Assembly (NCBI GenBank): GCA_963663865.1
Contig: OY760686.1
Coordinates: forward strand, 2,509,730-2,573,729
Reading direction: 5' to 3'
DNA length: 64,000 nt
From: Spirochaetota bacterium
GTDB lineage: Bacteria; Spirochaetota; UBA4802; UBA5550
The notes under the pieces are model-generated. The model saw only the letters and a program-made list of their open reading frames with translations. It was not told the DNA's origin and ran no database searches. Of the stretch, positions 12,715-28,545 are shown piece after piece; positions within the stretch are counted from its first letter, which is position 1; every line of letters begins with the position of its first letter. The position numbers and the translations under genes are program-made.

Positions 12715-13980
12715 ATGAATATATTTCAACAGGCCCAGAAGGGCATAATGAGCGATGACGTGAAAACCGCAGCTTCAGGTGAAGGACTGGACGAACAGCT
12801 CCTTTTAAAAGAGTTTGCCGCGGGGCGTGTCGCAATATTCAGAAACACTCAGAGGACAATTAAGCCGGTTGCCGTCGGCAATGGAACAACAACCAAGGTT
12901 AACGCGAACATCGGCACATCCCCTGATTTCTTCAAGCTTGAAACAGAGATGGAGAAGCTGAGAATTGCCGTCAGGTACGGCGCTGACGCGATTATGGACC
13001 TCAGCACCGGCGGCAACGTTACAGACTTCAGGCGTAAAATCATTGAAGAATCTCCGGTACCGGTAGGCACTGTGCCGCTCTACGAAGTTGCCAAGGACAT
13101 GATGGACATGAAGAAGTCCATTATGGACATGACCATCAAGGACTTTCTGAACATAGTAGAGAGGCAGGCAAAGGAAGGAGTCGACTTCATGACCATTCAC
13201 TCTGGCGTGACGCGCGCTTCCATTGAATCACTCCGTTCGCAGCACCGTCTCGTGGGAATTACCAGCCGGGGCGGCTCCATTATCGCCGAGTGGATAAAAA
13301 AGAACCACAGCGAGAATCCGCTTTACGAATACTACGACGACATACTGGACATTATGGCCGAATACAACGTGGCTATCAGCCTCGGTGACGGACTCAGGCC
13401 AGGAGGCATACACGATGCCAATGACCGGGGACAGATACATGAAATGGTTGAGCTCGGAAGGCTCGCCCGCCGGGCAAGGGAAAAAGGGGTGCAGGCCATT
13501 ATAGAGGGTCCGGGCCACATGCCCCTTGACACAATTGAAGCTAACATGAAGATTCAGAAAACCCTGTGTGACGGCGCCCCCTACTATGTTCTCGGCCCGC
13601 TTGTAACAGACATAGCTCCGGGTTACGACCACATTACCGGAGCAATCGGAGGAGCCATTGCTGCCGCAAGCGGCGCCGACTTCCTCTGTTACGTCACTCC
13701 GGCCGAGCATCTGAAACTCCCCTCTCCTGACGATGTCCGGGAAGGTGTAATTGCCTCAAAAATAGCGGCCCACGCAGCCGATATTGTAAAAATGGGAAGC
13801 AGAGCCAGAAAAATTGACGATGAGATGAGTGAAGCCCGGAGAAAGAGAGACTGGGACACGATGTTCAAGCTCGCGATTGACCCCGATAAAGCTAAAAGGT
13901 ACAGGGAAGACGTTCCCTCAGTGGACAACGATCAATGTTCAATGTGCGGAGAGTTCTGCGCCATGAAAAGGGACTATTAG
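12715..13980 (+). CDS. thiC: Phosphomethylpyrimidine synthase ThiC
   Basis: The product reads …EGPGHMPLDTIEANMKIQKTLCDGAPYYVLGPLVTDIAPGYDHITGAIGGA…CSMCGEFCAMK. This is the ThiC radical-SAM C-terminal CxxCxxxxC. Confidence 0.95.
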   Translation: MNIFQQAQKGIMSDDVKTAASGEGLDEQLLLKEFAAGRVAIFRNTQRTIKPVAVGNGTTTKVNANIGTSPDFFKLETEMEKLRIAVRYGADAIMDLSTGGNVTDFRRKIIEESPVPVGTVPLYEVAKDMMDMKKSIMDMTIKDFLNIVERQAKEGVDFMTIHSGVTRASIESLRSQHRLVGITSRGGSIIAEWIKKNHSENPLYEYYDDILDIMAEYNVAISLGDGLRPGGIHDANDRGQIHEMVELGRLARRAREKGVQAIIEGPGHMPLDTIEANMKIQKTLCDGAPYYVLGPLVTDIAPGYDHITGAIGGAIAAASGADFLCYVTPAEHLKLPSPDDVREGVIASKIAAHAADIVKMGSRARKIDDEMSEARRKRDWDTMFKLAIDPDKAKRYREDVPSVDNDQCSMCGEFCAMKRDY

Positions 13981-13989
13981 GAGGATTAG

Positions 13990-14817
13990 ATGTCCAGCGA
14001 TTCACATTACTACAGTTCGTACAAGGAAGACAGAGACCTTGTTCTTGAGTACAACCAGGTCTCGCTTGAAGACGGAGAGCCGGTAAACGTGCTGGGTGTC
14101 AACATTGACAATCTGACAAGGGAACAGGCTGTTGTCAAAGTCATACGCATGATTGAAAACGGGGGAGTAAACCACATCGTTCCGGTAAATCCCTATAAAA
14201 TCGAAAGAATGAAGACCCGTCAGGAGATGAGAAACCTGTTCTCCGGCGCGGACATGATAATTCCCAGCGGAGCTGGCGTGGTATGGGCGGCAAAGAAAAT
14301 CAAAACCCCTCTGAAGCAGAGAATCCCCATACTCAGCTTTATGATGGACATTATCCGTATCGCTGAAATCAAGGGCTTTTCCATCTTCATTGTTGGCGGC
14401 AAACCGGAAACTGCCGAGATGGCCTTCTTCAACATCAGAAAATCGTTTCCGAAAATACGAATCGTAGGCAGGCACGGCGGATATTTCAGCCCTGAACGGG
14501 AAAAGGCGGTCGTGGAAGCTATGAGAAAATCGGAAGCAAATATCGTCTTCGTAGGCATGGGTTTTCCAAAAGAAAACAGATGGATTGAAAAGATAAAGGG
14601 AGAATTTCAGAATACAGTCTTCGTCGGCGTTGGCGGATGTATTGACATTATTTCAGGCGACATCAAGAAAGCGCCCGCCTGTGCGATGGCAACGGGCACA
14701 GACTGGCTTTACAGAACCGCAGTCAGGCCTTGGCGTATCGGGCGTCTTATGCGAATTTTCAAATTCTATGTTCACGCTTTCTTCAAAGGCCTGTTTACGC
14801 GAACTCACGGGAAATAG
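13990..14817 (+). CDS. WecB/TagA/CpsF-family glycosyltransferase (GT26)
   Basis: The 275-aa product has the …IVPVNPYKI…ADMIIPSGAGVVWAAK…IFIVGGKPE…IVFVGMGFPKENRWI… pattern of GT26. It starts 9 nt after the thiC stop behind a GGAGG RBS. Confidence 0.75.
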   Translation: MSSDSHYYSSYKEDRDLVLEYNQVSLEDGEPVNVLGVNIDNLTREQAVVKVIRMIENGGVNHIVPVNPYKIERMKTRQEMRNLFSGADMIIPSGAGVVWAAKKIKTPLKQRIPILSFMMDIIRIAEIKGFSIFIVGGKPETAEMAFFNIRKSFPKIRIVGRHGGYFSPEREKAVVEAMRKSEANIVFVGMGFPKENRWIEKIKGEFQNTVFVGVGGCIDIISGDIKKAPACAMATGTDWLYRTAVRPWRIGRLMRIFKFYVHAFFKGLFTRTHGK

Positions 14818-14819
14818 GC

Positions 14820-15038
14820 CTATTTCTCGTACCGGTTTTTAAGCGCCCGCGTATCGCGGGCATCCATCAGCTCACCAGAGCTCACCTTACAGCGGCCAAG
14901 CGTAAAGCCGGCTACCTCTTCCGTGTATCCGCAGCTTCTACATTTAAATATCGGATTCCCAGCTTCGGTCCATTCAGAAGCATCCACGTACCTCGAACTG
15001 CATCTCCTGCAAAATATCACCGACACGAATTCACTCAT
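14820..15038 (-). CDS. Small zinc-ribbon protein (CxxC…CxxC)
   Basis: The 72-aa product carries CRRC…CRSC. No other domain was seen. Confidence 0.35.
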   Translation of the reverse strand: MSEFVSVIFCRRCSSRYVDASEWTEAGNPIFKCRSCGYTEEVAGFTLGRCKVSSGELMDARDTRALKNRYEK

Positions 15039-15064
15039 ATTACTCTCTCTTTCTGGATTTACTG

Positions 15065-16381
15065 TTATTGGACCAGCTTGACCGCAGCAACTGCCAGGTC
15101 TTCTCTGACCGCCAGTCCCTCCGCGAAATCTTCAGCCGCTTTCAAAAGCGCGCCTGCCCCTTCTTCAACTGACTGAACCTGTTGCGCCAGAGCGCTCAGC
15201 AGGACATCTTTAGACAGCTTTCTTCCTGACCTGTTGCGTATGTTAAACACACCGCCGGTAACCGCCGCCAGACAGTCTCCGGGCTTCATCTTTACGGTTA
15301 TTACACGGCCATATCCCGGCTCTTCGGGTCCGGACTGGAAAACCATCTTGGCCTCATTGCCAATTCTCTTCAGTATTACACATACATTGCCGGCCGTAAC
15401 AAACGATACTGACTGCGTGCCGCCATCAATGAAACCGTAAACCCCTGATAAGGCTGCTGCCCCCGGGAGTTGAATCATTGTTTTTCTGAGAAGCTGAAAA
15501 ATCCTGGAAGGCGCCCCAAGAGGAACTATCGGCAGCGAAGATAATGCTCCGCGTATACTGGATGCGGCCAGGGCCCCGGGAATGCCTTTTCTTGAGACGT
15601 CGCCAATGTAAAAATACGCGACCTCCTCACTGATTTCCATTCCGCCATGCAGTACGCCTCCCAGCTCACGCGCGGGCTTTGAAAGCGTAAACGCGGACAA
15701 TCCGCCCGCACGTACTGATACGCTCCTGCCGAAGACCTCGTTGACAGCAACTGCTCCTTCGACCTCGGCCTTTAAGCGTTCCTCCTCAATCGCTTTCTGA
15801 AAATAGACTGCGTTTTGTACTGCCAGTGCGGCCTGATCCGCGAATATGCTGAACACGGCGCTGTCAGAAGCGGCAAAGCCTTCTCTGTCTGCGGCATTTA
15901 TTGCCTGTATAACACCGAGAAGTTTACCCTTATGCAACAGGGGAGCGCACATAATCGATTTTGTGACAAATCCGGTTGCCCGGTCATAATTTGGATCAAA
16001 TCGGTCATCTGAATAGACATCGTTTACAATGAGGCTTTTCCCGCTCTTCGCGACATGGCCCGCGATGCCCTGCCCCATTCTAACCCGGTACTTTTCAGTC
16101 AACTCCTCACCGGCCCCTCCCAGAGCAACCTTAAAGACAAGATCGTCTGAAGATTCGTCGTAAAGCAGAAGAGTGCTTGCCTCAGCTTTAACGATCTCCT
16201 TAATTATCTCCATGATAATGTTCAGAAGCTTTTTTATATCGAGTGTTGAGTTGATAATCGTGTTTATTTCGACAAGCCTGGCAAGGCTTTCTGTCTGATC
16301 ATTGCCCCAGGTGTTTTCCAAAATCTGTGAAGTATCCATTTCCCCTTCCGGCGCGGCAATCACCCGCCTGCAGAATTTCAT
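15065..16381 (-). CDS. GAF-domain sensor fused to a PP2C/SpoIIE-type serine phosphatase (RsbU-like)
   Basis: The N-terminus is GAF-like (…ASTLLLYDESSDDLVFKVALGG…). The C-terminus is PPM-type (…YFYIGDVSRKGIPGALAAS…GDCLAAVTGGVFN…). Confidence 0.65.
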   Translation of the reverse strand: MKFCRRVIAAPEGEMDTSQILENTWGNDQTESLARLVEINTIINSTLDIKKLLNIIMEIIKEIVKAEASTLLLYDESSDDLVFKVALGGAGEELTEKYRVRMGQGIAGHVAKSGKSLIVNDVYSDDRFDPNYDRATGFVTKSIMCAPLLHKGKLLGVIQAINAADREGFAASDSAVFSIFADQAALAVQNAVYFQKAIEEERLKAEVEGAVAVNEVFGRSVSVRAGGLSAFTLSKPARELGGVLHGGMEISEEVAYFYIGDVSRKGIPGALAASSIRGALSSLPIVPLGAPSRIFQLLRKTMIQLPGAAALSGVYGFIDGGTQSVSFVTAGNVCVILKRIGNEAKMVFQSGPEEPGYGRVITVKMKPGDCLAAVTGGVFNIRNRSGRKLSKDVLLSALAQQVQSVEEGAGALLKAAEDFAEGLAVREDLAVAAVKLVQ

Positions 16382-16588
16382 CTCTCTGTTCCTGACAGCG
16401 ACAGCTGTCCGTCCCCAAATTAGGCCGCCCCCGTACCGGGGGTTGCATCATTTCATCAAAGTATATTAAAACGATAAATCCCCATAGTGAATCAGAAGAG
16501 TCTGAAGCTGTAAAGAAAAAAAAAGAATATTGTAAGCCCGATCAGGCCGCCTTTTTATGTTGACACAGCTGCCGCTGGATTCTTCAAT

Positions 16589-17308
16589 ATGGTCATGGCA
16601 AAGAGAGTTTCAATAATACAGTCAAACTACATTCCCTGGAAGGGTTATTTCGATATTATAAATTCATCCGACATATTCATTATTTACGACGACGCCCAGT
16701 ACACCCGCAGGGACTGGAGAAACCGCAACATCATTAAGACCCCGCGCGGGAGGGAGTGGCTCACTGTTCCGGTTGAGACAAAGGGATTCTACACGGCTCC
16801 GATAAATACGATAAGAGCTGCCGGCAAAGAATGGGCTGAAAAGCACTGGAAAACCATTAAGCGCAACTACTCGAAAACCAGATACTTCTCAAACTACAGC
16901 GGTCTTTTCGAATCCATCTACTCATCACTGGAAGATTATGAATATCTCACCGACATAAATATCAGGCTGATTAAAGCAGTCAGCTCAATCACTGGAATTA
17001 AAACTGAGATTAAGGATTCAAGGGATTTCAACCTTAGCGGCGACAGCAACGGCAGGCTTATCTCTATGTGCCTTGAATCCGGAGCCGACGAGTACATTTC
17101 CGGCCCGTCTGCAGCGGCATATATTGACGAAAACAGATTCCGGGAAGCAGGGATTACGCTGAGGTGGATGGACTACAGCGGGTATCCGGAATATCCGCAG
17201 CTCTATCCTCCATTCGATCACTGCGTTAGTATTCTTGATCTCATGTTCAACACGGGAGATGAGGCTCCCCTCTACATGAAATCCTTCGGGGAAGAGGCTT
17301 CCGCATGA
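16589..17308 (+). CDS. WbqC-like family protein (associated with polysaccharide clusters)
   Basis: The product reads …SIIQSNYIPWKGYFDII…DDAQYTRRDWRNRN…, the characteristic WbqC N-terminus. Confidence 0.7.
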   Translation: MVMAKRVSIIQSNYIPWKGYFDIINSSDIFIIYDDAQYTRRDWRNRNIIKTPRGREWLTVPVETKGFYTAPINTIRAAGKEWAEKHWKTIKRNYSKTRYFSNYSGLFESIYSSLEDYEYLTDINIRLIKAVSSITGIKTEIKDSRDFNLSGDSNGRLISMCLESGADEYISGPSAAAYIDENRFREAGITLRWMDYSGYPEYPQLYPPFDHCVSILDLMFNTGDEAPLYMKSFGEEASA

Positions 17309-18858
17309 AAGTATCCATTGTCACGTCGCTTTACCGTTCTCAGGACTACGTAAATGAGTTTTGCGCCCGGTGCAGAAAGTCCGCAGAAAGAATAGCAGAC
17401 GACTTTGAAATCATCCTTGTAAATGATTGCTCTCCTGACAATTCACTTGAGAAAGCCCTCGCCTGTGCCGAGACCGACAGCCGCATCACCGTCATTGATC
17501 TTGCGAGAAACTTCGGACAGCACAGAGCAATAATGACAGGTATTGCTCACAGCAGCGGCGACTACGTTTTCATTGCAGACTCAGACCTTGAAGAAGACCC
17601 TGCCCTTCTCGAAAGGTTTTACACCGTAATGATCTCAGAAAACGACACGGATGTCGTCTACGGTGTGCAAACAGTAAGGAAGGGAGGCCTGATTGAACGT
17701 CTCAGCGGCAGCATCTTTTACAGGGTTTTCAACTTCCTCTCTGAGGTCAAAATCCCGGCAAATCAGATTACGGCAAGGCTCATGACACGCCGTTACGCCG
17801 ACGCGCTTATTCAGCACAGGGAAAGAGAGCTGTTCATGGCCGGCATCTGGGCGCTGACGGGGTTCAGGCAGGTTGCGGTTCCTGTTCGAAAGAGATCATC
17901 AAGCCCGACTTCATACACACTGAAGAAGAAGATATCCCTTCTTATTAATTCCCTGACATCATTCAGCAGCAGGCCTCTGCTTGCGGCATCCTATATCGGA
18001 TTTGTTATTACAGTTTCCGCCTTCGCCGGCATAATAAAGCTCGTATACGACAGACTGGCGCACGGCACGGCTATCGAGGGATGGACATCGATTTTTGTCT
18101 CCATCTGGTTCGCCTGCGGACTCATAGTTTTCTTTGTCGGGCTGATAGGGCTCTACGTGTCGAGAATGTTTACTGAAACAAAAAAAAGGCCCTACACTGT
18201 CATCAAGCAGATTCACAGCTTCCCCTGCCGTTTCAGCAGGGACAGGATCAAAAACACTGTTTCAGAATACTACAGCAGCCTCGTGAAAACTCACGGCGCC
18301 ACTCCGAAGGGCGCGGACTGGAATTCGAGCGAGTCTCAAACGCTTCGCTTCAGACAGCTTATGAATGCTGTGGAAAACGGCAAGCCGTTCAGCATCAACG
18401 AGTTAGGCTGCGGCTATGGCGCTCTGCCCGCCTGGATGAAGGATAACGGGTTCCGTTTCAGATATACCGGTTACGACATTTCTTCAGAGATGATCAGCGA
18501 GGCCAAAAAACTCCACTCAAAAGGCAGGAACATTTCATTCGTTAAGTCAGACCGCATGAAATCCGCGGACTACACGGTGGCAAGCGGAATATTCAATGTC
18601 CGCCCCGGGATTTCCGAAAGGGAATGGGAGGCCTATGTCCAGGATACCATCAGAATGATGGACAGATCATCGGTCAAGGCATTTGCCTTTAACGCTCTGA
18701 CCTCATATTCCGATTCACACCTCATGAGGGACGACCTCTACTACGCTGACCCTCTGAAGCTATTTGACTTCTGCAAAAGAAATTTTTCAAAAAACGTATC
18801 CCTTCACCACGATTACGGGCTGTACGAATTCACAATTATCGTCAGAAAGGATATATGA
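17305..18858 (+). CDS. Fusion protein: GT2 bactoprenol-type glycosyltransferase (GtrB/ArnC-like, 2 TM helices) plus a C-terminal SAM-dependent methyltransferase
   Basis: The N-terminus is KVSIVTSLYRS…ILVNDCSPDNS…DSDLEE (GT2 DxD). Two TM helices lie around residues 230-290. The C-terminus reads …INELGCGYGALPAW…GYDISSEMI… (methyltransferase motif I). The start overlaps the upstream gene as ATGA. Confidence 0.7.
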   Translation: MKVSIVTSLYRSQDYVNEFCARCRKSAERIADDFEIILVNDCSPDNSLEKALACAETDSRITVIDLARNFGQHRAIMTGIAHSSGDYVFIADSDLEEDPALLERFYTVMISENDTDVVYGVQTVRKGGLIERLSGSIFYRVFNFLSEVKIPANQITARLMTRRYADALIQHRERELFMAGIWALTGFRQVAVPVRKRSSSPTSYTLKKKISLLINSLTSFSSRPLLAASYIGFVITVSAFAGIIKLVYDRLAHGTAIEGWTSIFVSIWFACGLIVFFVGLIGLYVSRMFTETKKRPYTVIKQIHSFPCRFSRDRIKNTVSEYYSSLVKTHGATPKGADWNSSESQTLRFRQLMNAVENGKPFSINELGCGYGALPAWMKDNGFRFRYTGYDISSEMISEAKKLHSKGRNISFVKSDRMKSADYTVASGIFNVRPGISEREWEAYVQDTIRMMDRSSVKAFAFNALTSYSDSHLMRDDLYYADPLKLFDFCKRNFSKNVSLHHDYGLYEFTIIVRKDI

Positions 18859-19535
18859 CACAACAGGAGAGAATTATGAAAAAGCTGATAATATTCGGAA
18901 CAGGCGACATCGCGCAGATAGCCCATCTATACTTTTCTGAAAGCGGAGAATACAGCGTAGAAGCGTTTACTGTTGACAGAGACTTCATTAAGGCAGACAG
19001 CTTCTGCGGACTCCCTGTTCACGCCTTCGAAGATATCCGGAAGGATTTCAGCCCTGATGAATACGAGCTTTTCGTCGCTGTCAGCTACGCGGGCCTCAAC
19101 CGCGTTAGGGCGTCAAAATACGAAGCAGGAAAGGCCATGGGATACCGCTTCGCAAGCTACATCAGCCCGGCCGCCAGCATCGCATCAAACGCCGAAATAG
19201 GAGAAAACTGCTTTATATTCGAAGACAACACGGTTCAACCCTTTGTAAAAATCGGCAATAATGTAACACTGTGGAGCGGCAACCACATAGGCCACCACTC
19301 CACCGTCGGAGACAGCTGCTTTATTACGTCCCATGTGGTTATATCGGGCGGTGTACATGTTGGAGATTTTTCCTTCATCGGAGTAAACGCGACTCTGAGG
19401 GATCACATAAAAATTGGGATGAGCTGCGTAATAGGAGCCGGAGCCATCATTATGAACAATACCGATGACGAAAGTGTCTACGTGCCTGAGAGGACGAAGC
19501 CCCGGAACATGAAGAGCAGCGAACTGCGTCTTTAA
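18855..19535 (+). CDS. NeuD/PglD/VioB-family sugar acyltransferase (left-handed beta-helix)
   Basis: An N-terminal Rossmann-like KKLIIFGTGDIAQ is followed by hexapeptide repeats (…IGNNVTLWSGNHIGHHSTVGDSCFITSHVVISGGVHVGDFSFIGVNA…). Confidence 0.75.
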   Translation: MTQQERIMKKLIIFGTGDIAQIAHLYFSESGEYSVEAFTVDRDFIKADSFCGLPVHAFEDIRKDFSPDEYELFVAVSYAGLNRVRASKYEAGKAMGYRFASYISPAASIASNAEIGENCFIFEDNTVQPFVKIGNNVTLWSGNHIGHHSTVGDSCFITSHVVISGGVHVGDFSFIGVNATLRDHIKIGMSCVIGAGAIIMNNTDDESVYVPERTKPRNMKSSELRL

Positions 19536-19579
19536 CAGAAATTTTTCTTATATAGACCGTCTGAAAAGGGAGCGCCCGA

Positions 19580-20623
19580 TTAAAACAGAAAGAATATACC
19601 TGTACCGGCGCCCGCATATACCGGAAACGATTCTCTTTCTGCGACTAAGCCGCAATAGAGGCTGAAGCGCATACCCACATTGTATGTCAGCATTCTTGAG
19701 GCGCTCAAACCTGCATCGGCCATGAACTCAATGGCAGGGCCGGACTGGTAGACGGTTTCACCCGAAGGATAATGGTAGCTCATGTACACGGCGCCCGCCC
19801 TTACAACCGGCTGAAGAGACCACTGACCAAATTCTGCTGCAGCATAGCACACCCTCAGCAGCAGGGGCACCTGCAGCATGTACCCCCCCAGAGTGCTTGA
19901 AAACTCGTATCGAAGCAGCCCGGCATCAACGCCCGCGGAAAGGCCCGGAACAAAAATGTCCCTAAACGACAGGGCAGCTCCGCCCCCAAACGCGTATTCC
20001 GCCCGATCGGCAAACTCTCCTGCCGGTAGCTGAAACGAGCCGTACAAATCAAAGCTTATATTGTCAACAGGCTCATCAACTGCCGTCTGATAGGACTCCT
20101 CGCGTTTCCGGGGATATCCTTTTTCGAGATACCAGCGTATATCCTCAACAATAAGGGCGCTCATCTTCTTCAGGTAGCGCCTGAGACTTCCCTGCCTGTC
20201 AATGCGCCTGACATAAGCGTAAAGAATGGAACCGTCTTCCACTCTGATGACGCGAATATTCAGAATTGCCTTGCCGAGCAGAGTTGAAATGCTGCCCGTC
20301 ACGAAATAATCGGCTGTGAGCATTTTTCCGGCCGAGACAATGGCTCCGCTGCCGGAGAGGTTCTCCTTCAGTGACTTCTCTTTAAGAATAAGGTCAACTC
20401 TCTCCCTTTCAAGTATGCGGAAACTGCGCGAGTTGAAAAAATTAAGCTCAATCTCATCCCTGAGAGTCTTCTCGAACTTTCTTGACTCCTCATCGAATTC
20501 AAAACCCGCAATGGCCACGGCCGGCCTGCTTTCAGATGCGGCAAAAGCTCCAGACACAACCGGAGCAAACGCACACACGGCAAGCATGACCGCACAAACA
20601 ATAATCCGAATTACTCTCTTCAA
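19580..20623 (-). CDS. Outer-membrane protein: N-terminal CsgG-like periplasmic domain plus a C-terminal beta-barrel-like region
   Basis: It has a signal peptide. A CsgG-family-like pattern follows (AVAIAGFEF…ERERVDLILKEKSLKENLSG…ADYFVTGSIS). The C-terminus has alternating hydrophobic residues and ends in …GIFFLF. Confidence 0.45.
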   Translation of the reverse strand: MKRVIRIIVCAVMLAVCAFAPVVSGAFAASESRPAVAIAGFEFDEESRKFEKTLRDEIELNFFNSRSFRILERERVDLILKEKSLKENLSGSGAIVSAGKMLTADYFVTGSISTLLGKAILNIRVIRVEDGSILYAYVRRIDRQGSLRRYLKKMSALIVEDIRWYLEKGYPRKREESYQTAVDEPVDNISFDLYGSFQLPAGEFADRAEYAFGGGAALSFRDIFVPGLSAGVDAGLLRYEFSSTLGGYMLQVPLLLRVCYAAAEFGQWSLQPVVRAGAVYMSYHYPSGETVYQSGPAIEFMADAGLSASRMLTYNVGMRFSLYCGLVAERESFPVYAGAGTGIFFLF

Positions 20624-21330
20624 TTTAACTTCGCTTTTATCTCACGGAAATATTCTCTGCAGCGCTCTTCGAAGCCTTCATCTTTCTTTAATGACTTTCT
20701 TACAATCCCTACAACCTCGGAGGTATCACCCCTGACTATTCTTGATGTCAACAGAACCGCTCCGTCTTCAGACTCCGCGCTTCCAAGCACGATGTACTCC
20801 GCGTTACTGTGCATTCCCGCAGACTGAATTACGCGCATCTGACTCCCGCTCCCCAGGACACGGGCGGCAGCTCTGTTCAATGCACTGAGTTCGGCGCTTC
20901 CAATCGTCTCTGAAGTAAAGCCCTGGAAACCTATAAGCTTCATTTTTATCCGGGGGGGGATATTGACCTGTTCAGTTTCTGTTTCCACCGGCTCCGGAAT
21001 TGATATTTCCGAAACAGCCTGCTTCTCTTTTTTTGAAGCAACATAGTACTTCACGCTGACAGCGGAAGCTGTAGTAACCGCTACAGCCGTTGATACCGCT
21101 AAAACCTTATTCACTGCCATAAAAAGCTTTATGTTCTTCATGAGATACATAAGAGCGGCAAATATAGCTGCCCATGCCGATATGAGGCCAAGCTCTCTGA
21201 GCAGCCTTTTCAGAACCCTTTCCTGCGACTTAATCGCGTGGCGTCTTGCCTCCCTGGAAGAGCTTTCGACAAGCTCAGCTCTGTCGAGAAGGCTTTCAAA
21301 AAGGAGGATATCTTTACGTCCAGACTTCAT
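20620..21330 (-). CDS. Putative membrane-spanning anti-sigma factor, cotranscribed with the ECF sigma factor
   Basis: The gene lies between the ECF sigma factor and the outer-membrane-protein gene, with 4-bp overlaps on both sides. It has two hydrophobic helices. A C8 tract on the coding strand sits in frame (residues IPPR). Confidence 0.4.
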   Translation of the reverse strand: MKSGRKDILLFESLLDRAELVESSSREARRHAIKSQERVLKRLLRELGLISAWAAIFAALMYLMKNIKLFMAVNKVLAVSTAVAVTTASAVSVKYYVASKKEKQAVSEISIPEPVETETEQVNIPPRIKMKLIGFQGFTSETIGSAELSALNRAAARVLGSGSQMRVIQSAGMHSNAEYIVLGSAESEDGAVLLTSRIVRGDTSEVVGIVRKSLKKDEGFEERCREYFREIKAKLN

Positions 21331-22049
21331 ATCAGATCCTCCACGCCCGTGATTCCTTTATTTCTTAAATTATGCATCATCTTCTTTATTACCCTTTTAT
21401 ACCTGTAACCTGTCTGTCTTGAGCTGAGATTAAGCTGTAAAGCGGCCTCCCTGCGGGAATAGCGTAATATAGCAATAAGCTCAAAGACGGTCCTGTCAAT
21501 ATCATCCTCGTAGTTCTCAGCGTTATCAATCTCCTGCTGAAGCACTATCCTCAGATCGTTTGAAACAGACTCCCTCAAATCTGAAAGATCATCTTTTCCG
21601 CTGTCGAGTTCAACCTGGCTCTCGCCTCTGCTCCTGTAAAACTGAGATATCCTGTTTCTTGCCACAGTCATCAGCCAGTTTTTTGGCTCAATTACTGTCT
21701 CAATATTCCTGTATAAATCAATGAATATTTCGTGGCAGATATCCTCGGCGTCTTCCACCTTCCCCAGAGACTTATAGACTCTGTTAAAGACAAGGGAATA
21801 GTTGTTTCTATAGCACTCAATAAACTCGGTCTTTAAGGCCTTATCGTCTTCCATTTCCACCATACACTGTATAAGATGATTTTTACACAAACTGTTGACA
21901 TATTTTTTTTTATTATCGGGGTTTTTTTGTGAAATTTGCAGCGATGAAGCCCAATTACACCTTAACTTCCCCGCCTGCGGCGGGGAGGAGTTGATGTTTG
22001 TGTCCTCGCAGTTTTTATCACTATTCAAATTTCCACTTGACATCTTCAT
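21327..22049 (-). CDS. ECF-subfamily RNA polymerase sigma-70 factor (probable true start at 21863, giving 178 aa)
   Basis: Region 2 reads …EDAEDICHEIFIDLYRN…WLMTVARNRISQFYRSR…. Region 4 HTH reads …LRYSRREAALQLNLSSRQTGYRYKRVIKKM…. The 62 aa upstream are low-complexity and likely not translated. Confidence 0.75.
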   Translation of the reverse strand: MKMSSGNLNSDKNCEDTNINSSPPQAGKLRCNWASSLQISQKNPDNKKKYVNSLCKNHLIQCMVEMEDDKALKTEFIECYRNNYSLVFNRVYKSLGKVEDAEDICHEIFIDLYRNIETVIEPKNWLMTVARNRISQFYRSRGESQVELDSGKDDLSDLRESVSNDLRIVLQQEIDNAENYEDDIDRTVFELIAILRYSRREAALQLNLSSRQTGYRYKRVIKKMMHNLRNKGITGVEDLI

Positions 22050-22222
22050 TTTTTATTAAAAAACTTTCCACGAGTTAGCGGCGGAAATCAAGCCGGCTTG
22101 CGCGTCAGCATGAAAATTGCATGGTTTAATCAAAAGCTTTGATTTTCCTTATACTCTCATTTATATATATTTATTTTACTATATGATTTTAACTCATATT
22201 TTTTCATAATAAATATGGCTGG

Positions 22223-24742
22223 TTGATTTTGTCAATTTATAAGAATATAAACAAGCTCTCCATAAGCTTCTTCTGGATATGGCTGACCATTTCAGCATGT
22301 TTCCTTCACGTTTCGTGCGGGAATTACATCAACGACATCAAACCGTATATTCCCGCACCCCTGTCTTCACTCTCAATTGGAAACGGAAGCCTCAACCCCG
22401 AGTTTGACAGCCTGACGACCAGCTACGAATGCGAGGTCCCCTACAGCACAGATTCAATCTCGCTTAGCGCGGATGCTTCATCCTCGATTAAATTCTACGT
22501 TGACGAAATTCCGCTTAAGACAGAGAGCGGGACAGTGATTATTGAACTCCATCCCGGAGTAAATATTGTATCTATCAGGACTTCAGCTCACGGCAAGTAT
22601 TCGCCCGGAGAATACATCCTGAGAATTAACCGTTTGCCGTCAAGCCGTCTATCATCGCTCAACGTTGAAAACGGGCTCCTTGAACATGAGTTTACACCTG
22701 ATACATCCGAATACACACTTTCAGTATTTTATACATACGACCGAGTGAACCTTACACCGTTTACTGAGGACCCTGAGGCTGAAATACGGATAAACGGAGG
22801 CATCATTCAAAGCGGAGAATCAAGAACAGTAAGGCTGTTTTCAGACGGAAATGAGGACACCATCATCGCGGTCACTGCCTCAGATGGAAGCATTGCTGAA
22901 TACACTTTCAAAATAAGACGTCAGCTGATTAGCTCATGGACTGAACACACTGTTAACGGATCTGTGGGCTCATCCCGCTGGAACAGCGTAGCGCTGTCCG
23001 ATGACGGAAACACCATTGCTGCTGTTTCAACCGAATCAATCTTCAGAACTTTTGACCAGGGTGATACATGGCACGAGATGACATCGCCTGTTATCAGAGG
23101 CTGGACTTCCGTTGCGCTTTCAGGGGACGGAGCGGCCATGACAGCCGCCGGCCCGGATGGCATTTGGCTCTTTGATTCGTCCGGCACTGACGGCACTCTA
23201 TGCGCGGGCACGGCCGGACCTGACTGGGCTTCTGTCTCTTCAAGCCCGGACTTCTCCCTCCTCGCAGCTTGCGCTTTCGGAGATTACATCTACACATCCT
23301 CCGACGGGGGAAACACCTGGGACATGAGGACTTTCTCCGGGGAACGCGACTGGGCTGATATAGCAGTATCTCCCGACGGCGCTTTCATTGCCGCGGTCTG
23401 CAAATCGGGCAGCATATTCACATCCTCAGATTCAGGGCTTTCCTGGAATGAAACCGCCTCGGCTCCAACGGGAGCAGGACCGTGGATTGCGGCTGCCGTG
23501 TTCAGCTCGGGACTGATTGCAGTCTGTTCAGAAGCCGGCTATATCTACAGCACAACAGACGGGGGCTCCACCTGGTCAGAGCACCCTCAAACCGGCGTGA
23601 GGAACTGGACTGACATCTGCTTTGATTCCGCTGGCGAGATTGTTGCATCCGCTTCGAACAGCTACATCTACAAATCCGGAAACTCGAGGACTGAATGGAC
23701 TCAGATGATATCATCCGGCAGGGACAGCTGGAGTTCAGCGGCCGTTTCGGGAGCAAATGTAATTGTTGCAGCTTCCAACCCTGGAAGGCTCAAAATATCT
23801 TTGAACTCAGGACAGATTTGGAATGAGTTCAACGGTCCCGACATACGGCTGTGGACTTCAATAGCATCCTCTTCAAACGGCCTCCGCTTCGCTGCCGCTG
23901 ACTGCGGCGGATACATATATACATACCCTGACCCTGACACGGATGAACTGTGGACCGAGCATCAGGCTGCCGGCAGGCGGAAATGGGCCGATATCGCCAT
24001 GTCGAATGACGGGTCATTTATAGCGGCCTGCGCGCCCTCCGATGGAATGTATATATCCTCAGACTTCGGGAATGCCTGGGAACAGCCAGACTCAACGTCA
24101 GGAATCAGCTGGAAGAGAATCGTCTGTGCTTCAGACGCTTCATTTCTGGCCGCATGCGCTACAGACGACTTCATCTATATATCCAAAGACAGAGGAAGCA
24201 GCTGGTCAGCCTGCGATACCTCCGGGCTTCGGAACTGGCAGGCCCTGTGCGTCTCAGCTGACGGGATGAGAATTGCCGCCTGCGAGGAATACGGCTATAT
24301 CTATACGTCTTCGGACGGAGGAGAGACATGGGCAGCAGAAGATTCTGCGGGAATAAGATACTGGCAGGACATAACCTGCTCAGCTGACGGCTCTTTTTTG
24401 TCCGCATGCGAAAAAGACGGTAACTTCGTTTTTTTTGAATCGGACAGTACAACCTCATGGCCGGCTGAGCTCCAGGAGTTTCAGCTTGAAGGCGACTGGC
24501 AGAGTATCAAATCGTCATACGACGGAAGAGAGATGCTGCTCTGCACAAGAACCGGCTCCCTGTACTTTTTCCATAATCCCGTGGATAATAATCCCGTGGA
24601 TAATCCCGTGGATTGGCCTTATTCCTTACAGATAATCGATTATGCCGGAACAGAGGGCTTTAATTCAATCGGGGCTTCGGCAAACCTTTCACGCATAATG
24701 GCAGCTCCTGCATCGGCAAGCACTCTTCTTTTCTGCGAATGA
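22223..24742 (+). CDS. Large surface lipoprotein: two cadherin-like beta-sandwich domains, about 12 BNR/Asp-box repeats (double beta-propeller), and a C-terminal NPVD tandem repeat
   Basis: It has a lipobox (LHVSCG). The segments …LSSLSIGNGSLNPEFDSLTTSYECEV… and …LSSLNVENGLLEHEFTPDTSEYTLSV… are cadherin-like. Repeated SxDxGxTW motifs occur (SSDGGNTW, TTDGGSTW, SSDFGNAW, SKDRGSSW, SSDGGETW…). Confidence 0.7.
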   Translation: MILSIYKNINKLSISFFWIWLTISACFLHVSCGNYINDIKPYIPAPLSSLSIGNGSLNPEFDSLTTSYECEVPYSTDSISLSADASSSIKFYVDEIPLKTESGTVIIELHPGVNIVSIRTSAHGKYSPGEYILRINRLPSSRLSSLNVENGLLEHEFTPDTSEYTLSVFYTYDRVNLTPFTEDPEAEIRINGGIIQSGESRTVRLFSDGNEDTIIAVTASDGSIAEYTFKIRRQLISSWTEHTVNGSVGSSRWNSVALSDDGNTIAAVSTESIFRTFDQGDTWHEMTSPVIRGWTSVALSGDGAAMTAAGPDGIWLFDSSGTDGTLCAGTAGPDWASVSSSPDFSLLAACAFGDYIYTSSDGGNTWDMRTFSGERDWADIAVSPDGAFIAAVCKSGSIFTSSDSGLSWNETASAPTGAGPWIAAAVFSSGLIAVCSEAGYIYSTTDGGSTWSEHPQTGVRNWTDICFDSAGEIVASASNSYIYKSGNSRTEWTQMISSGRDSWSSAAVSGANVIVAASNPGRLKISLNSGQIWNEFNGPDIRLWTSIASSSNGLRFAAADCGGYIYTYPDPDTDELWTEHQAAGRRKWADIAMSNDGSFIAACAPSDGMYISSDFGNAWEQPDSTSGISWKRIVCASDASFLAACATDDFIYISKDRGSSWSACDTSGLRNWQALCVSADGMRIAACEEYGYIYTSSDGGETWAAEDSAGIRYWQDITCSADGSFLSACEKDGNFVFFESDSTTSWPAELQEFQLEGDWQSIKSSYDGREMLLCTRTGSLYFFHNPVDNNPVDNPVDWPYSLQIIDYAGTEGFNSIGASANLSRIMAAPASASTLLFCE
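24575..24613 (+). repeat. In-frame 12-bp tandem repeat (aatcccgtggat ×3) encoding NPVD-NNPVD-NPVD near the C-terminus of the BNR lipoprotein
   Basis: The repeat is directly visible as cataATCCCGTGGATaatAATCCCGTGGATAATCCCGTGGATtgg. Confidence 0.8.
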
Positions 24743-24790
24743 CGGCTGCTTTCCCTTACGGAGGGATTTTTTACCAGGTGAATATGAAAA

Positions 24791-25690
24791 ATGAAATGGA
24801 ATAAAATTGGACACATCTTCACTCCTGACGGCTCCATCCCCCTCATGAAAACACATGCCTCACTGCCGGTAGCGGAAAACGTAGACGGCCCTCTATTCAG
24901 AATTTACTTCAGCTCAAGAGACGACCTCAACCGTTCGCATACATTCAGCCTTATGTTCGATATAGAAAGCTTAAAAATTCTGTCGGTTGACATTGAACCG
25001 GTACTTTCTCCGGGGGAACCCGGTTTTTTCGATGACTCGGGGGCCATGGCCTCGTGCATTCTCGAAAACGAAGGCACAAAATACCTCTACTATATAGGCT
25101 GGAATCTCGGAGTCAGCGTACCATTCAGAAATGCTATTGGCCTTGCGCTGAGACGCCCGGGGGAAAACATCTTTACAAAATACTCTGAAGGCCCCATTGT
25201 TGACAGAAGTCCGGTTGACCCATGTTTTACCGCCAGCTCATGCGTCCTTTACGTGGGCGGGCTTTTCAGAATGTGGTATCTTTCGTGTGTATCATGGCTA
25301 CCCCGCCACAGATACAATATCAAATACGCTGAATCTGCCGATGGCATCAACTGGCGCCGTAAAGGCATAACAGCGATTGACTTTAAAGACGCTGACGAAT
25401 ATGCCATCTCGGTGCCGAGGGTCCTCGTAGAACAGGGCGCTTACGGGATGTGGTTTTCACACCGCGGCACTCCCGACGCTCCGGCGTATAGAATAGGTTA
25501 CGCGGAATCAGCTGACGGAATCACGTGGAAAAGAAACGATCAAAAGGCTGGGCTTACAACTTCCGAGTCTGGATGGGACTCGGATATGGTCTGTTATCCG
25601 TTTGTTTTTACCCACAACGGGACAAAATACATGCTTTACAACGGAAACGGTTACGGAGTTACCGGTTTCGGTTTAGCTGCAGAGGAATAA
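24791..25690 (+). CDS. Beta-propeller glycosidase/phosphorylase-like protein (GH43/GH32/GH130-type fold), associated with the glycan cluster
   Basis: Beta-rich W/Y/G-rich repeats are present (…YAESADGINWRRKG…YAESADGITWKRND…). The length is about 300 aa. Family assignment is uncertain. Confidence 0.4.
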   Translation: MKWNKIGHIFTPDGSIPLMKTHASLPVAENVDGPLFRIYFSSRDDLNRSHTFSLMFDIESLKILSVDIEPVLSPGEPGFFDDSGAMASCILENEGTKYLYYIGWNLGVSVPFRNAIGLALRRPGENIFTKYSEGPIVDRSPVDPCFTASSCVLYVGGLFRMWYLSCVSWLPRHRYNIKYAESADGINWRRKGITAIDFKDADEYAISVPRVLVEQGAYGMWFSHRGTPDAPAYRIGYAESADGITWKRNDQKAGLTTSESGWDSDMVCYPFVFTHNGTKYMLYNGNGYGVTGFGLAAEE

Positions 25691-25695
25691 TCACA

Positions 25696-26550
25696 ATGAC
25701 CAGACAACTCCCGAGAAAGCTGTTCATCTGCCCCGAATGCAGATCTTCAAGACTCCGATTCCGCAAGGACCGGATTACCTGCATGGGCTGTTCTTCTCAG
25801 TTTTCCGTAGATAACGGCCGTTACATATTCCTGAAAAATCCTCCTTCCGCCCTTGATTTACTTGACCGTATTAAATCAATATTCAAATCGTTTCCCCGGC
25901 TCTATTCGTTTATTGTCAGAACTTTCAGCCCTGTTTATTCACCGGACTTTACATCGAGATTTATCAGCGACTATATTCAGGACAAATCGCTCGTTTCAAT
26001 CAACCTCGGAAGCGGAGCCGTCAGTCTTTCAGATAATATGATCGACATAGACTGTGTTCCGTATAAAAACGTCAGCATCGTGTGCAACATTACGTCGCTT
26101 CCTGTTGCCGACTCAAGCGTGGACCGCATTCTCAACTCTGCGGTGCTTGAACATGTCCCCTCGCCCGAGGCAGCGGTCAATGAAATGTTGAGGATTATGA
26201 AACCCGGAGCCGTAATATGCTGTTACATGCCCTTCATTGTAGGCTATCATGCCAGTCCTCATGACTACTCAAGGCTGACAATCGAAGGCATGCGGCATCT
26301 GTTCAAAGATTTCGATATTGTATCACTCGATGTATGCGGCGGACCGACAAGCGGTCTGCTCTGGATTCTCCAGGAATGGCTTGCTCTTATTCTCTCCTTC
26401 GGTTCAAAGAATCTCCACCTTGTCCTTTACATCCTGATAAGCATGCTGACATGGCCAGTTAAGTATATTGATGTTATACTCAGAAAACACCCTGCATCAA
26501 GGAACATAGCAAGCGGTTTTCTTATAACAGCGAGGAAGCCGTCCCAATGA
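25696..26550 (+). CDS. SAM-dependent methyltransferase (type 11) with an N-terminal CxxC…CxxC zinc ribbon
   Basis: The true ATG is at 25696, directly after the upstream stop and a GAGGA RBS. The zinc ribbon is ICPECRSS…CMGCSS. The methyltransferase core reads …SINLGSGAVS…LRIMKPGAV…. Confidence 0.6.
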   Translation: MTRQLPRKLFICPECRSSRLRFRKDRITCMGCSSQFSVDNGRYIFLKNPPSALDLLDRIKSIFKSFPRLYSFIVRTFSPVYSPDFTSRFISDYIQDKSLVSINLGSGAVSLSDNMIDIDCVPYKNVSIVCNITSLPVADSSVDRILNSAVLEHVPSPEAAVNEMLRIMKPGAVICCYMPFIVGYHASPHDYSRLTIEGMRHLFKDFDIVSLDVCGGPTSGLLWILQEWLALILSFGSKNLHLVLYILISMLTWPVKYIDVILRKHPASRNIASGFLITARKPSQ

Positions 26551-27407
26551 TTCTCTGTCCCGAATGCGGCCTTCCGCTTAATAAAAAGTCATGCAGATGC
26601 GGCTTCAAGCTCGCAAAACAAAACGGCGTTTACCGCCTGGCAGCCGGCATTCCACACATCAAACCGGGGTACTCGGAGGAAGGGCATATCGTACTCAACT
26701 CGTGCGAAGAAAAACACTTCTGGTTTGTCATAAGACGCAGACTTATTTCAGAAGCTGTAAAGCGCTGCCTTAAGCCAGGCTCGTCTGTGTTCGACGCGGG
26801 CTGCGGAACCGGCCGGACAGCAATGGAACTCAGCAAAGCCGGATTTAAGGTAAGCGCCGGAGACATCTTTGAGCCCGGACTCAGGCTTTCCGCCTCCAGG
26901 ATACAGGGCCCGGTCTATCAAACCGACATATCAGATCTCCCATTCAGGGAGCATTTCGATTCTGTATGTGCCTTTGACGTTATTGAGCACTTTAAGGACG
27001 ATATCGCCCTCATGAAAACTTTTCATTCGGCGCTTAAGCCCGGGGGAATCATCTTTCTGACAGTTCCCGCCTACCAGTTCCTCTGGAGCCGAGGCGACAC
27101 TGAAGGCGGGCACGCAAGAAGATATAGCAGAAAAACAGTGAGAAACCTTCTCCGCAATGCCGGCTTTGAGCCGCTTGAGATACGCTATTTCTATCTATTT
27201 ATTCTTCCCCTTCTCTTTCTTCGGAAACTTCTGCTCATGTTCAGTCCGAGTGGGCATAAATCCACCGAGACCGGTACAGCCATAAATGAGGCAGTCAATG
27301 CCATCCTCATGTCAGCCGCACGTTTTGAGCACCGGATATTCCGCCGTAGCGGCCCTCCTGCTGGAGGCAGCATCCTGGCAGCAGGCAAAAAAATCGAGGA
27401 GCAGTAA
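26547..27407 (+). CDS. SAM-dependent methyltransferase with an N-terminal zinc ribbon (paralogous architecture to the upstream gene)
   Basis: The product begins MILCPECGLP…CRCG, then VFDAGCGTGRTAMELSKAGFKV…LKPGGIIFLTVP. The start overlaps the upstream gene as ATGA. Confidence 0.7.
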   Translation: MILCPECGLPLNKKSCRCGFKLAKQNGVYRLAAGIPHIKPGYSEEGHIVLNSCEEKHFWFVIRRRLISEAVKRCLKPGSSVFDAGCGTGRTAMELSKAGFKVSAGDIFEPGLRLSASRIQGPVYQTDISDLPFREHFDSVCAFDVIEHFKDDIALMKTFHSALKPGGIIFLTVPAYQFLWSRGDTEGGHARRYSRKTVRNLLRNAGFEPLEIRYFYLFILPLLFLRKLLLMFSPSGHKSTETGTAINEAVNAILMSAARFEHRIFRRSGPPAGGSILAAGKKIEEQ

Positions 27408-27411
27408 GCTA

Positions 27412-28545
27412 ATGCAGGTTCCCTTTAACATACCATGTCTGACCGGACTCGAAGAAAAATATCTGCTTGAGCTGGTCCGGTCAGGACGCTTTTCCGGAGA
27501 CAACCACTTCACGGCTGAATGCCGGGCACGCCTTAAAGAGCTCTATCCTGATTCAATGCCTCTGCTGACGACTTCCGGGACATCCGCCCTCGAAATGGCA
27601 TGCATCCTCACGGAACTCGGGCCCGGGGATGAGGTTATTCTCCCATCCTACACCTTTTCATCTACAGCAACTTGCGTAACAATGAGAGGCGCGGTGCCTG
27701 TTTTCGTCGATATCCGCCCCGATACGATGAATATAAATGAGCAACTGATTGAAGACGCGGTTACGGATAAAACACGCGCCATAATTCCAGTCCACTATGC
27801 CGGCATGCCCTGCGAGATGGACACGATATTGGATATCGCCGCAAAACACGGGCTGACTGTTATTGAGGACGCGGCACAGGCTGCTCTTTCGTTATATAGA
27901 GGAACCCCGGCCGGAGCTATCGGCTCCTTCGGCGCGCTCAGTTTCCATGAGACAAAGAACCTCCAGTGCGGAGAGGGGGGCGCTCTTCTTGTCAACAGAG
28001 AGAAATACTTCGGCAGGGCGGAAATCATCAGAGAAAAAGGTACCGACAGGTCAAAGTACTGGAGAGGAGAGATAGACAAGTACTCGTGGGTTGACAACGG
28101 ATCCTCTTTCCTTCCTTCCGAACTATGCTCAGCCTTTCTTCTCCCGCAGCTTCAGAGCGCTGAAGAAATCACGTCGCAGAGAAAAAACTCCTGGCGTCTT
28201 TACATAGATGCCTCGCAGGAACTCGTTGAAGCGGGACACATTGAGATTCAGATTATTCCCGAAGGCTGCGAAACTAACGGCCATATTTTCTACATTAAAA
28301 CAAGTAATATTCAAGTAAGGGAAAAGCTCATGTCGTTTCTCGAAACAAGAGGAATAGCGTCCGTTTTTCACTATGTACCGCTGCACAGCTCAAAGGCCGG
28401 AAAACGCTTCGGACGTTTCCACGGAGACGATACTTATACAACAGCCGAAAGCATGAGACTTCTGAGACTCCCCATGTTCCACGGGATCACCTCCGATCAG
28501 ATTCAGTACACAGTTGAATCAATTGAGGATTTCTACAGGGCATAA
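27412..28545 (+). CDS. DegT/DnrJ/EryC1/StrS-family PLP-dependent sugar aminotransferase (WecE/PseC-like)
   Basis: The product begins MQVPFNIPCLTGLEEKYLLELVRSGRFSGDNHFTAECRARLKEL… and continues …LTTSGTSALEMA…DEVILPSYTFSSTA…. It is about 377 aa from the ATG at 27412. Confidence 0.85.
   Translation: MQVPFNIPCLTGLEEKYLLELVRSGRFSGDNHFTAECRARLKELYPDSMPLLTTSGTSALEMACILTELGPGDEVILPSYTFSSTATCVTMRGAVPVFVDIRPDTMNINEQLIEDAVTDKTRAIIPVHYAGMPCEMDTILDIAAKHGLTVIEDAAQAALSLYRGTPAGAIGSFGALSFHETKNLQCGEGGALLVNREKYFGRAEIIREKGTDRSKYWRGEIDKYSWVDNGSSFLPSELCSAFLLPQLQSAEEITSQRKNSWRLYIDASQELVEAGHIEIQIIPEGCETNGHIFYIKTSNIQVREKLMSFLETRGIASVFHYVPLHSSKAGKRFGRFHGDDTYTTAESMRLLRLPMFHGITSDQIQYTVESIEDFYRA

Follow-up and report, generated by a model that had tools for sequence, protein, structure and literature searches.

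Which sugar do the clustered glycan genes of a Spirochaetota bacterium of the lineage UBA4802/UBA5550 produce, and how does it reach its acceptor? This question is raised by a stretch of 64,000 nucleotides (NCBI GenBank assembly GCA_963663865.1, contig OY760686.1, positions 2,509,730 to 2,573,729), referred to as the window below, in which a first-pass annotation had described one island of envelope glycan modification at 13990–28545 and had connected it with a distant Maf gene, and thereby with nonulosonic acids and flagellin. The present analysis points elsewhere: two groups of genes within this span, together with a membrane protein encoded outside of it, probably form a three-component, lipid-carrier-dependent system of periplasmic glycosylation, which would donate a tailored 4-acylamido-4,6-dideoxyhexose.

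Open reading frames (ORFs) of the window with at least 150 amino acids were scanned against Pfam and NCBIfam, and negative statements on sugar-pathway families rest on those ORFs. Every gene named in the first-pass annotation was recovered in its place by the ORF map and these scans, but the flagged 14.5 kb are not one contiguous sugar island. The clustering holds, since six of the genes are syntenic in many phyla; the single island does not, since a phosphatase gene and a block with an extracytoplasmic function (ECF) sigma factor lie inside it. From gene content and comparison with other genomes, 16589–19535 and 24791–28545 are best read as one conserved cassette in two halves, with the ECF-sigma block between them. 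The first half, on the forward strand, is opened by a gene for a WbqC-family protein (16589–17308; PF08889, E = 9e-77), which is followed by a single ORF for a fusion protein of 517 residues, consisting of a family 2 glycosyltransferase (GT2; match from residues 4–135 onward) and a methyltransferase (match at about 345–431; 17305–18858), and by a left-handed beta-helix N-acetyl- or acyltransferase of the NeuD/PglB/VioB family (18855–19535). The second half, on the same strand, contains genes for a GH130-like five-bladed beta-propeller of 299 residues (24791–25690), methyltransferase 1 (MT1, 25696–26550; Methyltransf_11, 6e-11), methyltransferase 2 of the Methyltransf_23 type (MT2, 26547–27407; 8e-23) and a WecE-type dTDP-4-keto-6-deoxyhexose 4-aminotransferase, the true start of which is at 27412 (27412–28545). 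Reading of the junction sequences showed ATGA overlaps, and thus translational coupling, between the WbqC and GT2 genes, between the fusion and the acetyltransferase gene, and between MT1 and MT2, the latter overlap of 4 bp being already known from the first-pass annotation.

The cassette was recognized by its recurrence. A survey with the GH130-like profile, at one genome per species, gave 80 loci (the total being at least 80), in which the window proteins were then placed by tblastn; co-occurrence was judged on 89 other loci (1.5 Mb) carrying parts of the cassette. Two reference loci were reached through homologues of the fusion protein. In Pseudomonas taiwanensis the order is WbqC, GT2, methyltransferase, acetyltransferase, GH130-like protein, GtrA, a membrane protein of 571 residues and DegT; in a metagenomic locus it is DegT, methyltransferase-23, EamA, GH130-like protein, WbqC, GT2–methyltransferase fusion, acetyltransferase and YfhO. 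The six shared window proteins (WbqC, GT2, methyltransferase, acetyltransferase, GH130-like protein and WecE) are 44–56% identical to these copies, e.g., 51% for WbqC and 56% for the acetyltransferase of P. taiwanensis. Cassettes of high identity were also present in Electronema (cable bacteria), Spirulina and another cyanobacterium, Firestonebacteria, Bacteroidales, Pirellulales (Planctomycetes), Desulfovibrionaceae, Bifidobacteriaceae, Arcobacter and an archaeon of the Methanospirillaceae. Since six genes are syntenic at 44–59% identity in many phyla, their clustering is well beyond chance; a search for conserved synteny in relatives had been proposed in the first-pass annotation, and the gene order is indeed kept across many lineages. 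A plasmid of Peteryoungia desertarenae carries, with overlapping genes, WbqC, GT2, methyltransferase, acetyltransferase, a "hypothetical protein" and EamA, all with generic names in RefSeq. Among the 80 loci, a DegT-type aminotransferase was found in 63, the acetyltransferase in 56 (at most 1 kb from the propeller gene in 50), WbqC in 38, a methyltransferase in 35 and a GtrB-like GT2 in 23. As to the interrupting block, a sister genome (L088) has the same layout, ECF-sigma block included, and no homologue of the two block genes tested, those for a CsgG-like lipoprotein and a protein of 839 residues, was present in the 89 other cassette loci.

The type of sugar is suggested by the aminotransferase and the acyltransferase. 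The former passed both WecE cut-offs (NF008687, 525.7 bits versus 375; TIGR02379, 505.4 versus 434.85) and matched Escherichia coli WecE (4PIW) with 4e-126, the next aminotransferase class being QdtB (6e-45); it stayed under the cut-offs for PseC (177.7 versus 423.5 bits), LegC (154.4 versus 420) and ArnB (174.4 versus 631). By these scores it is a WecE-type enzyme, for which gluco and galacto products are not distinguishable from the sequence. The acyltransferase is a member of the NeuD/PglB/VioB N-acetyltransferases (TIGR03570, 181.8 bits versus a cut-off of 160.8), and its nearest relatives of solved structure, the PglB acetyltransferase, PerB, PglD and VioB, are sugar amino N-acetyltransferases, acting mostly on C4 amines. 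With three methyltransferase domains in the cassette (fusion, MT1 and MT2), the earlier suggestion that an amino-deoxy sugar is methylated, N-acylated and transferred to a protein or a lipid is therefore plausible. The acyl groups themselves perhaps vary. One locus (L089, 10779–15790) contains genes for an acyl-carrier protein, a short-chain dehydrogenase, a formyltransferase, an AMP-ligase and sulfotransferases beside WbqC and acetyltransferase genes, and continues with two small EamA-like genes, methyltransferase-23 and YfhO; its gene content suggests that N-acyl groups may differ between lineages.

The route of transfer is indicated by the GT2 part of the fusion protein, which the first-pass annotation had not recognized as a likely polyprenyl-phosphate sugar synthase. 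A GtrB/ArnC-type GT2 domain occupies residues 1 to about 305 and a class I S-adenosylmethionine-dependent methyltransferase about 315 to 517. Residues 2–301 align end to end with Synechocystis GtrB (PDB 5EKP, 5e-44) and residues 2–303 with ArnC (3e-34); the best NCBIfam matches were PgfS and ArnC, both under their equivalog cut-offs (130.4 bits versus 529 for the ArnC model). The DxD motif is retained (D92/D94), and hydrophobic segments indicate a membrane hairpin of two helices at residues 224–292. With this hairpin, a typical trait of the class, the domain is of the GtrB/ArnC/CsbB type and is predicted to be a polyprenyl-phosphate sugar synthase; since the hairpin consists of two helices, the fused methyltransferase should be on the cytoplasmic side, like the GT2 domain. 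In P. taiwanensis the counterparts of the two halves are separate genes, at 52% identity. The fusion is a minority form, known from the window, one further locus (L004) and about 14 metagenome proteins, with separate genes in the seven other loci checked.

Loci elsewhere also carry candidates for the remaining components. A small transporter gene, EamA or GtrA, is located beside the cassette in six individually inspected loci (L003, L004, L085, L086, L087 and L089) and in eight of the 80 scanned ones. A large multi-pass membrane protein commonly flanks the cassettes; this may be YfhO (in L004 and L089), DUF6044, a protein with weak PMT_2 matches or one without any Pfam match, and BLASTP among the partners of different cassettes revealed no shared family. 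Neither YfhO nor the Pseudomonas protein of 571 residues was found in the window by tblastn. The only window protein comparable to these partners is a product of 703 residues, encoded on the reverse strand at 32886–34997, 4.3 kb beyond WecE and outside the flagged span.

This protein, also missed in the first-pass annotation as the likely GT-C transferase, comprises about 11 membrane helices and, behind them, a soluble part of about 330 residues. Its AlphaFold2 model (pLDDT 88.9, pTM 0.89) has a GT-C fold: the top 12 Foldseek matches in the PDB were all GT-C proteins, including STT3 (6e-6), DPY19, ArnT (3e-4), AftD and AftA, and the ArnT match had the best target-normalised TM-score, 0.51. The loop behind the first helix contains a DxD motif, the two acidic residues of which, D29 and D31, did not vary among 36 aligned homologues. 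With the fold and acidic residues in the first external loop, the 703-residue protein is likely, as judged from the model, to be a GT-C-fold transferase. There was no Pfam match even at E ≤ 5, PMT_2 included, and a profile of the protein against PDB sequences yielded only proteins with tetratricopeptide repeats (TPR); since no family link was obtained from Pfam, PDB profiles or BLASTP, the assignment rests on fold and synteny. The tail is TPR-like, both by profile matches and in the model. The TMTC enzymes are eukaryotic GT-C O-mannosyltransferases which modify proteins and possess TPR domains (PMC7801869); by analogy, the TPR-like tail may be a hint of a protein as acceptor, a glycolipid or glycan being equally possible.

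Synteny of the GT-C protein is clearest in a spirochaete relative (L085), whose PyrG is 80% identical. There, the homologue of the 703-residue protein (36% identity) directly adjoins WecE (59%), MT2, MT1 (51%) and EamA; GT2 and WbqC follow further along. The other flank of the homologue resembles the window, with pyrG and a gene for an outer-membrane protein. In L086 the homologue adjoins methyltransferase-23 and EamA, and of two others (L090 and L091) one adjoins DegT, methyltransferase, GT2 and WbqC and one an RmlA-like gene, a dehydratase gene and GT2. Thus, four of five sampled homologues are near GT2 or sugar genes, and a distant one (P0162) is without sugar neighbours. A HEPN/Polbeta nucleotidyltransferase pair, which we take to be a toxin-antitoxin module, was also seen in two of these loci, between WecE and the methyltransferases in L085 (13450–14137) and just upstream of the GT-C gene in L086 (9024–9655).

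Tailoring of the sugar would be the task of the other proteins. MT1 and MT2, both zinc-ribbon methyltransferases, have the N-terminal motifs CxxC...CxxC and CxxC...CxC, respectively, and each has a C-terminal hydrophobic helix (residues 229–249 in MT1). The ATG of MT1 at 25696, six bases past the upstream stop, retains its motif, which would be lost with a metagenome gene call at the equivalent of 25783 (255 residues). MT2 homologues were present in 18 cassette loci, typically adjoining EamA, GT-C or WecE genes. Membership of the WbqC protein in its family is clear (258.2 bits versus a gathering score of 21.3 for PF08889), and the family is large, with more than 8000 matches in one search. Against the PDB, phmmer and profile searches gave nothing, and Foldseek with a model of pLDDT 92 gave nothing at E ≤ 1e-3, with a weak Rossmann/HUP-like resemblance only. 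In Shewanella, next to a dTDP-Qui4N gene, WbqC is labelled "putative glycine transferase" as an annotation only (PMC7253198). Because this label is an annotation and a significant relative in sequence or fold was lacking in the PDB, no activity is assigned to WbqC here.

The single propeller sequence stayed under the cut-offs (PF04041, 20.4 bits versus 26; NF052550, 34.2 versus 450), and a profile of three sequences matched, in the PDB, the beta-1,2-oligomannan phosphorylase 9FJ8 (1e-13), 7FIP (2e-10) and GH117 (2e-10). By profile comparison it is GH130-like in fold, as a remote relative of the GH130 beta-1,2-mannoside phosphorylases of about 300 residues, and not a family member. It has no hydrophobic segment and looks cytoplasmic. 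The propeller family comprises 700 cluster representatives at E ≤ 1e-30. The propeller also matched a protein of 5844 residues (P0309) in 38 separate stretches and several proteins of 900–2300 residues in 8–12 stretches, which look like giant proteins of repeated propeller units.

Taken together, the following route may be proposed. WecE would aminate dTDP-4-keto-6-deoxyglucose to a dTDP-4-amino-4,6-dideoxyhexose, and the beta-helix acyltransferase would then N-acylate the C4 amine, yielding a sugar of the Fuc4NAc/Qui4NAc type. WbqC, the GH130-like propeller and at least one of the three methyltransferase domains could modify it further, before the GtrB/ArnC-like GT2 domain would move it onto polyprenyl (presumably undecaprenyl) phosphate. 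The lipid-linked sugar would be flipped, for which relatives have an EamA/ArnE-F-like or GtrA gene, and in the periplasm the GT-C/TPR protein would hand it to a protein or to a glycolipid or glycan.

Several findings weigh against this route. No EamA or GtrA was found in the window by tblastn and Pfam, and thus no window protein qualifies as the flippase. As neither rmlA nor rmlB was found among the scanned ORFs, dTDP-4-keto-6-deoxyglucose must come from elsewhere. The GT-C assignment relies on a predicted structure with moderate TM-scores (0.35–0.51) and no sequence-family match. Unrelated genes interrupt the cassette over 5.2 kb, and the GT-C gene is on the opposite strand, with four unrelated genes between it and WecE, so that the parts need not be co-regulated. 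Many O-antigen-like loci contain a looser set of tailoring genes (acetyltransferase, GH130-like, DegT, WbqC-like and methyltransferase) but no GtrB-like GT2; these genes can therefore feed other pathways as well. To our knowledge, the donors of the characterised GtrB/ArnC-type enzymes are UDP- or GDP-linked and a dTDP donor has not been described for this GT2 class, so that the one expected here would be unprecedented. Finally, the position of GtrB D157 is occupied by Thr (about T165) in the window GT2. An inactive GT2 on this account was considered and rejected, since D157 varies among membrane GT-A enzymes and its part in catalysis is contested, while D94 may be the catalytic base (PMC12698845).

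The alternative which survives best retains the whole machinery and changes the acceptor: as in the Arn pathway, the sugar might be placed on a glycolipid or a molecule of the lipid A type, altering surface charge or resistance to antimicrobial peptides, instead of on a protein. The logic matches ArnB, ArnA, ArnC, ArnE/F and ArnT step for step, and ArnT was, as mentioned, the fold match with the best target-normalised score. However, an N-acylated sugar has no positive charge, and a linked deacylase was not found, the only candidate in the window being a polysaccharide deacetylase gene (61379–62221, reverse strand; PF01522, the family of ArnD) 33 kb from the cassette. Moreover, the large TPR-like domain resembles that of the protein-modifying TMTC enzymes (PMC7801869), and the varying GT-C partners of different lineages suggest different acceptors. 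An Arn-like role is thus regarded as unlikely, though not to a degree that it should be neglected.

A more modest proposal would be that the cassette does no more than supply ordinary cytoplasmic glycosyltransferases with a tailored nucleotide sugar, and that the 703-residue protein is unrelated to it. The O-antigen-like loci without a GtrB-like GT2 would agree with this, as would the distance and strand of the GT-C gene and the distant homologue without sugar neighbours. Yet the GT2 of the window forms one protein with a methyltransferase of the cassette and is coupled by ATGA overlaps to both WbqC and the acetyltransferase; the GT-C homologue of the closest relative directly adjoins WecE, and others adjoin methyltransferase-23 and EamA or GT2 and WbqC. 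High-identity cassettes commonly include, apart from EamA or GtrA, a large multi-pass membrane protein, often recognisable as GT-C. This proposal appears improbable in consequence.

Still less can be said for a polymer on undecaprenyl diphosphate, resembling enterobacterial common antigen (ECA) or O-antigen, with the other required genes located elsewhere in the genome. ECA contains Fuc4NAc made by WecE, and in the window a GT26 gene of the WecG/TagA family (13990–14817; PF03808, 1e-51) and the WecE equivalog are within 13 kb of each other. The GT26 protein is, however, under the cut-offs for WecG (120.9 bits versus 323) and TarA (173.9 versus 350), and its gene appears to be a separate unit: it is directly behind thiC, its stop is accompanied by a terminator-like hairpin (a soft hint only, like the others from the scan for promoters and terminators), and a gene on the opposite strand then precedes WbqC. 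None of the 89 cassette loci holds a GT26 homologue, and the inclusion of this gene in the set by the first-pass annotation had to be given up. WecA and WecF were not found in the window, nor did the scanned ORFs contain Wzx, Wzy, Wzz, an initiating phosphoglycosyltransferase, RmlA/B or a nonulosonic-acid synthase, which agrees with the earlier view that this is no classical Wzx/Wzy O-antigen cluster; the cassette GT2, furthermore, is of the GtrB/ArnC type and not polymer-building. A polymer of this kind is therefore considered very improbable.

Least credible of all is the transfer of a nonulosonic-acid-like or other modified sugar by Maf to flagellin in the cytoplasm, for although spirochaete flagellins have been reported as glycosylated, and a Maf/MptE-like protein (50070–51770; PF01973, 3e-43, with a partial PseD match of 106 bits) and an acyltransferase of the broad NeuD/PglB/VioB family are present, the window ORFs include no nonulosonic-acid synthase (PseI, NeuB or LegI), CMP-activating transferase or PseB/PseG-type gene, the aminotransferase scores above the WecE cut-offs and below those of PseC and LegC, a lipid-carrier GT2 would be superfluous for a cytoplasmic route, and Maf homologues occur in none of the 89 loci. 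Between WecE and the Maf gene are 21.5 kb, which include pyrG, mfd and comEC; the neighbours of Maf are HDOD, ComEC and TPR genes, and Maf is recognizable at the domain level only, its PseD score comparing with a cut-off of 670 bits. The proposed link to flagellin thus found no support.

The surroundings are those of an ordinary chromosome, with rho, dapAB, thiC, aroA, pyrG, mfd, comEC and fusA; the source is a metagenome-assembled genome, and the best homologues as well as matches to TP_0789-like proteins and OmpL1 indicate the phylum Spirochaetota. Between the GT26 gene and a gene for a GAF-SpoIIE phosphatase (15065–16381, reverse strand), which by Pfam is unrelated to the sugar genes, is a Cys-rich ORF of 72 residues (14820–15038, reverse strand) with weak zinc-ribbon matches, which is also called as a gene in metagenome records. 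The interrupting block (19580–24742), which is outside the cassette, encodes according to Pfam the CsgG-like lipoprotein, a membrane protein with a weak FlgO match (E 0.01), the ECF sigma factor and the 839-residue protein (22223–24742), which has two cadherin-like domains and a propeller of the BNR/Sortilin type. That the latter, a secreted protein, is the acceptor of the sugar would be pure speculation. A terminator-like hairpin is present at 24749–24766. Between WecE and the GT-C gene are four unrelated genes, for an SH3 protein, a ZIP transporter, an outer-membrane-like protein and a flavodiiron-like protein. Upstream of thiC (12715–13980), a gap of about 300 nucleotides (12420–12715) contains no thiamine pyrophosphate riboswitch, with no Rfam match at E ≤ 1 on 12380–12780, and at the gathering score no Rfam match was obtained in the whole window.

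If the preferred interpretation, i.e., three-component periplasmic glycosylation with a 4-acylamido-4,6-dideoxyhexose, is correct, this type of glycosylation, known mainly for glucose, GlcNAc, 4-amino-4-deoxy-L-arabinose (Ara4N) and pentofuranoses, would be extended to a tailored rare amino sugar, the biosynthesis genes of which travel together with the transfer machinery. Testable roles would result for WbqC, the GH130-like propeller and a GT-C family without Pfam model, and the cultured carriers P. taiwanensis and P. desertarenae could serve for finding glycan and acceptor. For this genome, an attractive but unsupported tie to flagellin glycosylation is removed. A wider proposal is put forward tentatively, with the balance somewhat against it: that the cassette represents an uncharacterised system of many bacterial phyla and some archaea, which loads the rare tailored sugar from a dTDP donor onto a lipid phosphate and passes it on to exchangeable GT-C enzymes, that WbqC and the propeller have new sugar-tailoring activities, and that the 703-residue protein founds a new GT-C family, possibly of spirochaete periplasmic protein glycosyltransferases. 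In the published literature on the WbqC family and on viosamine or Fuc4NAc with GT-C enzymes, the coverage of which was incomplete so that prior work is possible, the cassette was not described.

Compared with known systems, the likeness to Maf-dependent flagellin glycosylation with pseudaminic or legionaminic acid consists in the Maf/MptE-like protein, which has no link to the cassette in position or co-occurrence; a nonulosonic-acid pathway, and with it the linked set, was not found in the window. ECA shares WecE at the equivalog level and a GT26 family member nearby. The GT26, however, is below the WecG cut-off and missing from all 89 loci, the acetyltransferase is of the beta-helix type, whereas WecD is a GNAT acetyltransferase, and the combination of WecA, WecG, WecF and WzxE/WzyE/WzzE with WecE is not present in the window. 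In the viosamine island for flagellin of Pseudomonas syringae and the ant operon (anthrose) of Bacillus anthracis, an aminotransferase, a beta-helix N-acyltransferase and a methyltransferase produce a methylated 4-acylamido-4,6-dideoxyhexose, a sugar of the sort proposed in the first-pass annotation; these sugars are added by cytoplasmic Leloir transferases, and we know of no lipid-phosphate synthase, GT-C, WbqC or GH130-like partner in these systems. In TMTC1–4, too, TPR repeats on the non-cytoplasmic side come after a GT-C membrane domain (PMC7801869), yet a sequence relationship to the 703-residue protein, such as a PMT_2 match, was not detectable.

By analogy, the closest systems in logic are ArnBCADTEF and the three-component systems of Gtr, CsbB-YfhO and PgfS. 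GtrABC, CsbB-GtcA-YfhO and PgfS-PgfM have in common with the cassette a GtrB-type synthase, a small flippase (found here in relatives) and an interchangeable GT-C enzyme (PMC8035078; PMC11127046). They use ready-made donors (UDP-Glc, UDP-GlcNAc or ribose derived from phosphoribosyl pyrophosphate), whereas the cassette carries a pathway of five to seven genes for a rare amino sugar, and the GT-C family of the window has no Pfam model. With ArnBCADTEF the likeness extends to a DegT-family 4-aminotransferase, N-acylation of the amine, a GT2 loading undecaprenyl phosphate, a flippase of the EamA/SMR type (in relatives only) and a GT-C transferase. In contrast, the aminotransferase of the window is WecE-type (dTDP-hexose) and not ArnB, a beta-helix acetyltransferase replaces the ArnA formyltransferase, and an ArnA decarboxylase/formyltransferase, a linked ArnD and a flippase are missing from the window, in which the set of ArnB, ArnC and ArnA equivalogs was likewise not found; WbqC, GH130-like and methyltransferase genes are added, and the GT-C protein has a TPR-like tail. 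The split layout and the GT2–methyltransferase fusion are unusual traits of the copy in the window. From these closest systems the cassette differs in having its own pathway for a rare amino sugar, a probable dTDP donor, two families without known activity and, in the window, a GT-C family without Pfam model as partner.

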